In this document: one piece after another, positions 43,356-44,190 of the stretch | Layout of the letters: each line of letters starts with the position of its first letter | Position numbering within the stretch: the first letter of the stretch is position 1 | NCBI GenBank assembly: GCA_036630325.1 | Contig: CP142732.1 | Coordinates: forward strand, 868,001 to 932,000 | DNA from: Vairimorpha necatrix | Lineage: Eukaryota | Reading direction: 5' to 3' | DNA: 64,000 bases | Notes under the pieces: generated by a model | What the model saw: only the letters and a program-made list of their open reading frames with translations | The model's database searches: none | What the model was told of the DNA's origin: nothing | Translations under genes and position numbers: made by a program

Positions 43356-43369
43356 TACAAATCTGTAAT
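43356..43369 (+). repeat. Left target-site duplication TACAAATCTGTAAT
   Basis: Identical 14-mer at 44177-44190. Confidence 0.95.
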
Positions 43370-44152
43370 AGGTGCCCTTGGCCGAGTGGTCGAAGGGATG
43401 TTCTCATTGACCAATGGGCTGGGTTCGAGTCCCAGGGGCACCAAATTGTTTCTACTTTCTATGATGCAGTTGGAACAACTCAGATGATGAAAATGTCCAC
43501 GGTAATCATTAAGTTGATTCAATGAAACTTGTGTGTGTCCAGCCACAAGGGGATTAGCATCTAGTGTAGAAACGCACCTCAAGGCCAAAAAGCAGTATCG
43601 CCCTTTGGTGACTTAATGATACATAAAAGTATCTAATGGGTACGGCCTAGTTGGAGCCCATGGCTGGTGCACTCTAGAGTGGGATCCTAGAGCTAACTAA
43701 GAGACTAGACGAAGTAGGGCAATAGAAGGTCTCGTGGACCCTATCCTACATGATTCTGTAACACGGTGGCCGAAACTAGTGGGAGACTGGTGGTCAACGC
43801 AGTCCAATAAAAATGCCGGGCTGGGGATGTGGTCGTGTAAGGAGCCGTGTGTGCGATACAGATGATTGTAGGGACCTTTGAGTCAGTACGATGATGTCTC
43901 TCCTCGGGTTATAGATAACCATGCCCGTTAAGTATATCCGCTGTGAGGTCACTCTGGACGCGATTTGAGGTATAAATGGAAAGTGTTCTCCTGGAGCCAA
44001 AGTCCAATGGATACGGCGGAGCTTGCTGCACCGGCAAGTTATACGGAGGGAGTTTTAGTGAGTAAGAATCTCACAGTACCAGTTGGAAAAGGATCACACC
44101 CAAATCCCTCTGGTCCCTATGTAAGGTTTCTCCCTACCTCTTACTTGCAAAG

Positions 44153-44176
<24 letters not shown>
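43370..44176 (+). mobile_element. tRNA-headed SINE-like retroposon, about 807 bp
   Basis: tRNA-like head with A and B boxes, roughly 45-50% GC against very AT-rich flanks, no credible ORF, A24 tail at 44153-44176 and a perfect 14-bp TSD. Confidence 0.92.
43371..43443 (+). promoter_or_regulatory. tRNA-derived Pol III promoter head (pseudo-tRNA)
   Basis: A box TGGCCGAGTGG and B box GGTTCGAGTCC. Perfect acceptor stem GGTGCCC/GGGCACC and T-arm CTGGG/CCCAG; D and anticodon stems are imperfect. Confidence 0.85.
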
Positions 44177-44184
<8 letters not shown>

Positions 44185-44190
44185 TGTAAT
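44177..44190 (+). repeat. Right target-site duplication TACAAATCTGTAAT
   Basis: Directly follows the poly(A); identical to 43356-43369. Confidence 0.95.

Follow-up and report, generated by a model that had tools for sequence, protein, structure and literature searches.

What kind of sequence is the GC-rich island that interrupts an AT-rich intergenic spacer in a 64-kb stretch of Vairimorpha necatrix contig CP142732.1 (the window, by which the whole analysed stretch of 64,000 nt is meant), and in whose genome does its family reside? The insert at 43370-44176 (807 bp) was judged, with a probability of roughly 0.65, to be a full-length and recently inserted copy of a tRNA-derived long SINE (short interspersed nuclear element), a non-autonomous element residing in many copies in the microsporidian genome. 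A sequence-only reading of the same DNA had proposed a candidate SINE in a microsporidian; the anatomy, the microsporidian setting and the membership in a repeated family all stood, and residence in the parasite genome is what we infer from them. The parts of the insert and its borders are as follows.

43356..43369, plus strand: 5′ target-site duplication (TSD), 14 bp, exact copy of 44177-44190
43370..43370, plus strand: lone A separating the TSD from the tRNA-like head (read from the sequence; ARAGORN starts the head at 43371)
43371..43443, plus strand: tRNA-like head, 73 nt (ARAGORN: tRNA, anticodon CAT)
43379..43389, plus strand: A box (TGGCCGAGTGG) of a putative internal RNA polymerase III (Pol III) promoter, found with the pattern TRGCNNAGTGG
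43422..43432, plus strand: B box (GGTTCGAGTCC), its start 43 nt downstream of that of the A box, found with the pattern GGTTCGANNCC
43444..44152, plus strand: non-coding body, 709 nt, with no long frame and no Pfam domain
44153..44176, plus strand: pure A24 tail, the only homopolymer run of at least 12 in the window
44177..44190, plus strand: 3′ TSD, 14 bp, exact copy of 43356-43369

The insert has a GC content of 46.6%, compared with 27.4% for the window, and in two scans with 200-nt windows the GC fraction over it reached 0.505 and 0.525, with a sharp break in composition at both ends. The flanking 14-mer, TACAAATCTGTAAT, is found at these two places of the window and nowhere else, and the identity of the two copies extends by 0 bases on either side. 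Direct repeats alone are not rare here, since 25 exact direct pairs of 14-mers with a spacing of 300-2000 bp were counted at about 19 places in the window; only the TACAAATCTGTAAT pair flanks a tRNA-like head (1 base between) together with the sole long A run (0 bases between). The A at 43370 is possibly the first transcribed base or an untemplated base. The GC-rich island (about 45-50%), the perfect 14-bp TSD, the A24 tail and the length of about 807 bp described by the sequence-only reading were confirmed to the base, and the purity of the tail and the perfection of the TSD are consistent with its proposal of a recent insertion. The joint of an empty site (~43369 to ~44191) was absent among the matches listed (15 of 33 joints).

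The 7-bp acceptor stem and the 5-bp T stem of the head are perfect, and the D and anticodon stems are degenerate. By eye, its D-loop resembles that of a class II (Leu/Ser-type) tRNA. No CCA end follows, which excludes a mature tRNA as the template of the head. It folded with z = -4.27, and 0 of 200 shuffles folded equally well. The A-box and B-box patterns, which are consensus forms, each had 2 matches in the window, one in the head and one in the true tRNA at 15166-15248; by chance, 0.11 matches would be expected for the A box and 0.08 for the B box. ARAGORN, the box patterns and the fold score thus bear out the 73-nt tRNA-like head with A and B boxes that had been noticed earlier. A functional tRNA gene was rejected: the Rfam tRNA model aligned with the head over its full length (1-71) at 20.3 bits, under the gathering score of 29 and compared with 59 for the true tRNA, non-standard pairs occur in the acceptor/D region, and the anticodon stem pairs poorly by eye. 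The Rfam model RF01684 (mascRNA/menRNA) was also aligned as a whole with the head, at 28.6 bits and under its gathering score of 42.5; the two are alike in the tRNA-like cloverleaf, which is a resemblance of fold only. mascRNA forms the 3′ end of a vertebrate long non-coding RNA, not the 5′ end of a retroposon. The true tRNA, the sole one in the window, was called Leu(TAG) of 83 nt by ARAGORN in bacterial mode, and by eye its anticodon region could instead belong to an intron-containing tRNA-Tyr(GTA). A scan for bacterial promoters and terminators was uninformative for a eukaryote.

The longest stop-to-stop frame of the element is 86 amino acids (aa), none of 9 element frames gave a Pfam match above the cut-off, and no homologues of the 86-aa and 85-aa frames were found in large protein collections; the earlier statement that the element holds no credible open reading frame (ORF) was accordingly confirmed. 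Three weak matches of a 68-aa frame were dismissed, the best involving a repetitive protein of 3,425 aa in which a 17-residue motif recurs, and being attributable to chance. As a structured RNA the body was unconvincing (z = -0.51 for the plus and -2.27 for the minus strand, 20 shuffles each), and Rfam gave no match on it, the sub-threshold tRNA and mascRNA matches lying on the head. Neither AATAAA nor ATTAAA was found within 340 nt of the tail, the sole AATAAA standing at 43806, 347 nt upstream, which sets the tail apart from that of an ordinary mRNA. A processed pseudogene, that is, a retrocopy of an mRNA, was rejected because no ORF remnant or domain was found and because this AATAAA does not lie at 10-30 nt from the tail. 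As in tRNA-derived SINEs (SINE2 class), the copy combines a tRNA-related 5′ head with internal A and B boxes, a body without an ORF and hence without autonomy, an A-rich tail and a TSD, which in that class is variable in length.

Membership in a repeated family was examined in public sequencing runs. Words of the element occur in 20 runs, and the highest shares were 0.74 and 0.65 in two runs of named organisms (X1 and X2, respectively), 0.54 in a bat-gut run (X3), and 0.38 and 0.31 in a freshwater and a bovine metagenome. Shares of at most 0.16 (root, rhizosphere, further freshwater and bovine runs, and the RNA runs X18-X20) were not used as evidence of habitat or expression. Contigs of X1-X4 were aligned to window positions 42400-45200, with the following numbers.

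X1: 420 contigs; at least 99% alike, 199; 95-99%, 96; 90-95%, 60; below 90%, 65
X2: 244 contigs; at least 99% alike, 57; 95-99%, 49; 90-95%, 66; below 90%, 72
X3: 20 contigs; at least 99% alike, 4; 95-99%, 7; 90-95%, 6; below 90%, 3
X4: 7 contigs; at least 99% alike, 0; 95-99%, 1; 90-95%, 1; below 90%, 5

The search for other copies that the sequence-only reading had called for thus returned hundreds of variant contigs in X1 and X2, some of them bearing a head. Among the best 24 of 245 loose ends, at which the match of a contig breaks, those at 43443 (at least 7 contigs of X1 and at least 10 of X2) and at 43417 (at least 2 of X2 and at least 1 of X3) are followed upstream by what looks to the eye like a diverged form of the head. 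Head and body together are therefore a trait of the family and not a one-off chimera, and the repeated family to which the element belongs has further copies that bear a head, as a SINE requires. This bears directly on the idea of a single chimeric retrocopy, in which a tRNA-like RNA was joined to an unrelated polyadenylated RNA by template switching. Such an origin would agree with the single copy in the window, with a length that is large for a SINE and with the plus-strand fold score of the body; it is very improbable, since the body is matched in two runs by hundreds of contigs that diverge from it to various degrees, at least 20 contigs continue upstream into diverged head-like sequence, and the head has no CCA end. 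By the head-bearing contigs it is already largely refuted.

The copies fall into groups. At 43502, X2 differs from the window copy in 512.7 of 515.9 depth and X3 in 4.6 of 4.6, the positions 44041 and 44044 behave likewise, and all three differences are minority variants in X1; near-fixed differences in X2 and X3 indicate lineage-specific subfamilies. The segment 43434-44091 is common to copies in three runs and 44092-44152 is less shared; over the last ~85 nt the depth in X2 falls from ~445 to 163, and X3 has no cover. The picture is a modular one, with a well-shared body of ~650 nt and a more variable head and tail, and it resembles the head/core/tail organization of SINE2 elements. Skips within the element in X1 contigs have no GT..AG ends and were taken as diverged copies aligned piecewise, not as deletions or introns, and no conclusion was drawn from holes in the cover at 43058-43339 and elsewhere. 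Exact patterns gave no further copies: a 24-nt pattern of the body had 0 matches in metagenome contigs, two element patterns had 0 matches in viral contigs, and one match in prokaryote genome contigs (a metagenome-assembled genome of Synergistaceae) covered 23 nt only and was put down to chance.

The flanks of the insert were found in the same two runs. A 383-nt contig of X1 equals 44189-44567 with 0 differences, 341 nt of the left flank (42633-42973) are exact in X2, and the right flank in X2 matches at roughly 94-97% identity; from these matches, both runs contain this microsporidian or a very close relative. Within the right flank of X2 (44374-44945), ~11 differences in ~190 nt and 7 in 211 nt were counted, compared with 0 in the 341 nt on the left, so that either divergence is uneven across the insertion site or two strains are present in one run. 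The flank matches also bear on an assembly artefact, by which host or contaminant sequence would have been spliced into a parasite contig. The composition break is indeed sharp at both ends, no read or contig bridges 43369/43370 among the matches listed, and the right-hand contig starts only at 44189. A chimeric join makes no perfect 14-bp duplication of a parasite target with parasite sequence continuing on both sides, and the X1 contig reproduces the right-hand sequence without a difference; an artefact is hardly credible.

The depths of X1 and X2 were read in different ways, on account of an intron in the neighbouring gene. The minus-strand gene at 42671-43059 contains a 26-nt intron (42877-42902, GTAAGT...TAG), whose removal joins two ORFs into a 120-aa membrane-like protein; short spliceosomal introns of this kind are known in microsporidia. 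A contig of X1 (depth 98.3 of 98.3) lacks exactly these 26 nt, and the X2 contig retains them. Given the spliced intron and a flank depth that is very uneven, from 0 to 270, X1, provisionally labelled "DNA?", most likely holds RNA, an intron-less DNA allele being the less likely alternative. The element bins of X1, with summed depths of 18,554-153,651 rising toward the 3′ end, accordingly reflect transcript abundance across the whole family with a 3′ bias, and neither copy number nor 5′ truncation. A reading of X1 depth as copy number (mid-body to flank 134, compared with 132 in X2) and as 5′ truncation was ruled out by the spliced intron. Family RNA is thus very abundant in X1, alongside the spliced mRNA of the neighbouring gene. 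The 383-nt X1 contig on ORF-less 44189-44567 has a depth of 138.6, and the depth is down to 0 by 44656. If X1 does hold RNA, the spacer is transcribed there, perhaps by read-through from the element or as an RNA missing from the annotation. A depth of 115,247 in X1 at 42400-42493 was considered as a repeat and set aside, the bin covering the last ~70 GAA-rich coding bases of the ORF at 42123-42467 and the first few past its stop, where low complexity and/or high expression would act. That ORF has a serine-rich stretch and an acidic, GAA-rich C-terminal tail, gave no Pfam match at E ≤ 0.01, and presumably resembles a ribosomal stalk P protein.

X2 was read as DNA, because it keeps the intron and its flank depth is even and low (2-5). 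Its body bins sum to 417-733 with no 5′-to-3′ gradient, which is ~90-160 times the flank, a ratio of summed depths and not in itself a number of copies.

The surroundings of the insert are those of a parasite chromosome. Pfam matches were obtained in 20 of 30 scanned non-element ORFs of the window, all to housekeeping families: importin-beta, formin, a 900-aa TAF1-like protein, acyl-CoA synthetase, G3PDH, Ndc80, L28e, V-ATPase B, TRM1, a four-RRM protein, iPGM, TAF6, RFC, CK2-beta, UFD1 and XPA. The best named relatives of G3PDH are from Nosema granulosis (52% identity), Conglomerata obtusa (45%) and Encephalitozoon species (44%), and the contig that bears both G3PDH and the element is 1,234,891 bp long; the window comes from a microsporidian chromosome and is densely packed with genes. 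The element occupies an intergenic spacer between the minus-strand gene at 42671-43059 and an ORF from 44812, from which ~300 bp and ~620 bp separate it, respectively. In conserved genes the GC content rises to 45-49% here (0.49 in the V-ATPase B gene region, 36901-38050), and with such genes in a 27% GC genome a high GC content alone is no proof of foreign origin. The sequence-only reading had set the fresh insertion against "every other decayed element" in the window, a contrast that proved baseless: no other transposon-like element was found among the 30 ORFs or by blastn, and none of the ORFs had a Pfam reverse transcriptase, integrase or transposase domain. With blastn at word size 7, the element matched A/T-rich runs of the window and a few stretches of 12-29 nt, which were taken as chance.

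From these parts the following route of insertion may be proposed. Transcription, most likely by Pol III from the internal A and B boxes, would begin at the tRNA-like head or close beside it, and the RNA would cover the ~710-nt non-coding body and end in the A tail. An endonuclease/reverse transcriptase encoded by a long interspersed nuclear element (LINE), the presumed partner, would nick the AT-rich intergenic target, cDNA synthesis would be primed on the A tail (target-primed reverse transcription), and a staggered second nick 14 bp away would give rise to the TSD. LINEs are reported from several microsporidia in excerpts of PMC12449221 and PMC3614468.

The family may instead belong to the host animal or to another organism in the samples, the window copy being then a rare host-to-parasite transfer, in which RNA of a host SINE was reverse-transcribed into the chromosome of the parasite, or the founder of a very recent invasion. 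The evidence on this alternative is mixed. The element is much richer in GC than the window and depleted in CpG (observed/expected 0.61, compared with 1.01), and it occurs once, without fragments, in 64 kb. X2 is mostly non-parasite DNA, its contigs totalling 268 Mb, and X1 is RNA, so that depth ratios assign no copies to the parasite and the many variant contigs are not placed in a carrier genome by the X2 depth. Two of three unlike X1 loose ends at truncated copies are 44-47% GC, not AT-rich, among the matches listed. Near-identical pieces occur in the bat-gut run X3 (109 nt with 0 differences and 308 nt with 5), as they would if derived from a repeat of a prey insect. Host-derived transposons have been published for Nosema bombycis (PMC3614468, excerpt). 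On the other side, the insertion lies within a microsporidian contig of 1.23 Mb, and its clean TSD and A tail point to reverse transcription in the parasite nucleus, which is simplest with a resident RNA and LINE, and the high GC content is also seen in conserved genes such as that of V-ATPase B. The ~90-160 copies suggested by X2 are typical of fungal SINEs (MgSINE ~100, Foxy ~160; PMC5063351, excerpt). For animal SINEs such a number would be low. On balance, a host origin of the family was considered unlikely. Its fullest form, a GC-rich, CpG-depleted host SINE that is shared with the parasite, transcribed there at the level of ribosomal-protein mRNAs and mobilized by a parasite LINE, is likewise doubtful. 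Retroposition of a host SINE into a eukaryotic parasite that lives inside cells is not known to us, and literature searches gave no example among the papers listed; if the idea were true, this would be the first SINE known to cross from an animal into such a parasite, and it would have been caught at a very young stage.

A family resident in the microsporidian, of about a hundred or more copies, was preferred because the clean insertion shows that reverse transcription acted on element RNA in the parasite nucleus, and because ~100-160 copies would place one in 64 kb fairly often and are a number typical of fungal SINEs (PMC5063351, excerpt). Several observations weigh against this preference. 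The window has no LINE-like ORF, no reverse transcriptase or endonuclease domain being found in the 30 ORFs, and no second copy or fragment of the element was found in it by blastn at word size 7. Among the matches listed, no contig bridges an end of the element into microsporidian flank at another locus, and no read or contig spans the junctions of the window copy itself. Depth is much lower in the head bin than in the body bins, with 3,297 compared with 47,849 in X1 and 64 compared with 733 in X2. The X2 ratio is further weakened by its nature as a summed depth and by the size of the assembly, from which most of X2 is another organism, presumably the host, at a similar low depth. The element words in the bat-gut, freshwater and bovine metagenomes (0.31-0.54) could be explained by an arthropod host or by its parasite. 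A GC content of 46.6% with a CpG ratio of 0.61 in a 27.4% GC genome fits foreign or recently acquired sequence, and the single T4 run of the element (44053-44056) could terminate Pol III in some organisms. Finally, with 807 bp the element departs from the SINE2 class, in which lengths of 100-600 bp are usual.

The last point loses force in the light of fungal SINEs, and the earlier remark that the element is unusually long for a SINE does not hold against them. Lengths of 700 bp (Egr1) and 900 bp (EGH24) from Erysiphe/Blumeria and of 800 bp (mgsr1, ~40 copies) from Magnaporthe are listed in an excerpt of PMC5063351, which makes the length limit a soft one. The same excerpt gives MgSINE as a tRNA-derived element of 472 bp with ~100 copies, Foxy of Fusarium oxysporum as tRNA-derived with ~160 copies, and TSDs of 4-14 bp for the tRNA-SINEs of Aspergillus. 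The long fungal SINEs are the closest known elements, likened to the present one by published description and not by sequence. They too are non-coding, measure 470-900 bp, number from tens to a few hundred copies and have hosts of the fungal lineage, and Foxy and MgSINE also share a tRNA-related head of the Pol III type. A tails and TSDs are found in both Foxy and MgSINE. They differ in their genomic background, the present genome being a compact microsporidian one of 27% GC, in which the element is far richer in GC than its surroundings. tRNA-derived SINEs in general are mobilized by LINEs, and for animal families excerpts of PMC7245038 and PMC4758252 describe a head, a body that is conserved and a tail of LINE origin.

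Within the microsporidia, a repeat table for N. bombycis lists a SINE class of 28,669 bp (0.18% of the genome) and the LINE Dong-R4 at 1.04% (PMC3614468, excerpt). This case is alike in belonging to the same phylum and in combining SINE-class repeats and LINEs in one genome, and differs in that the SINE entry is given in a table without sequence, structure or family description. An excerpt of PMC11585130 reports 0 SINEs for Microsporidia sp. MB, a term search of the whole text did not find the word SINE in two surveys of microsporidian transposons (PMC7313128 and PMC12449221), and in a Glugea paper it serves as a category label. Literature searches, which did not cover supplementary files that may contain repeat libraries, returned no described microsporidian SINE family among the papers listed. 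The view that SINE families are not well described in microsporidia is supported in so far as the entries found are uncharacterized, and requires correction in so far as a SINE class had already been tabulated for N. bombycis (PMC3614468, excerpt).

The type of element is therefore a known one, and the locus probably represents the first microsporidian SINE family at the level of sequence, if the family is resident. The perfect TSD and the pure A24 tail imply a very recent event of LINE-type reverse transcription in a compact, gene-dense parasite chromosome. A resident family would point to an active partner LINE, would supply presence/absence markers for the typing of strains, and would bear on how transposons persist in or arrive at reduced parasite genomes, including by exchange with their hosts.

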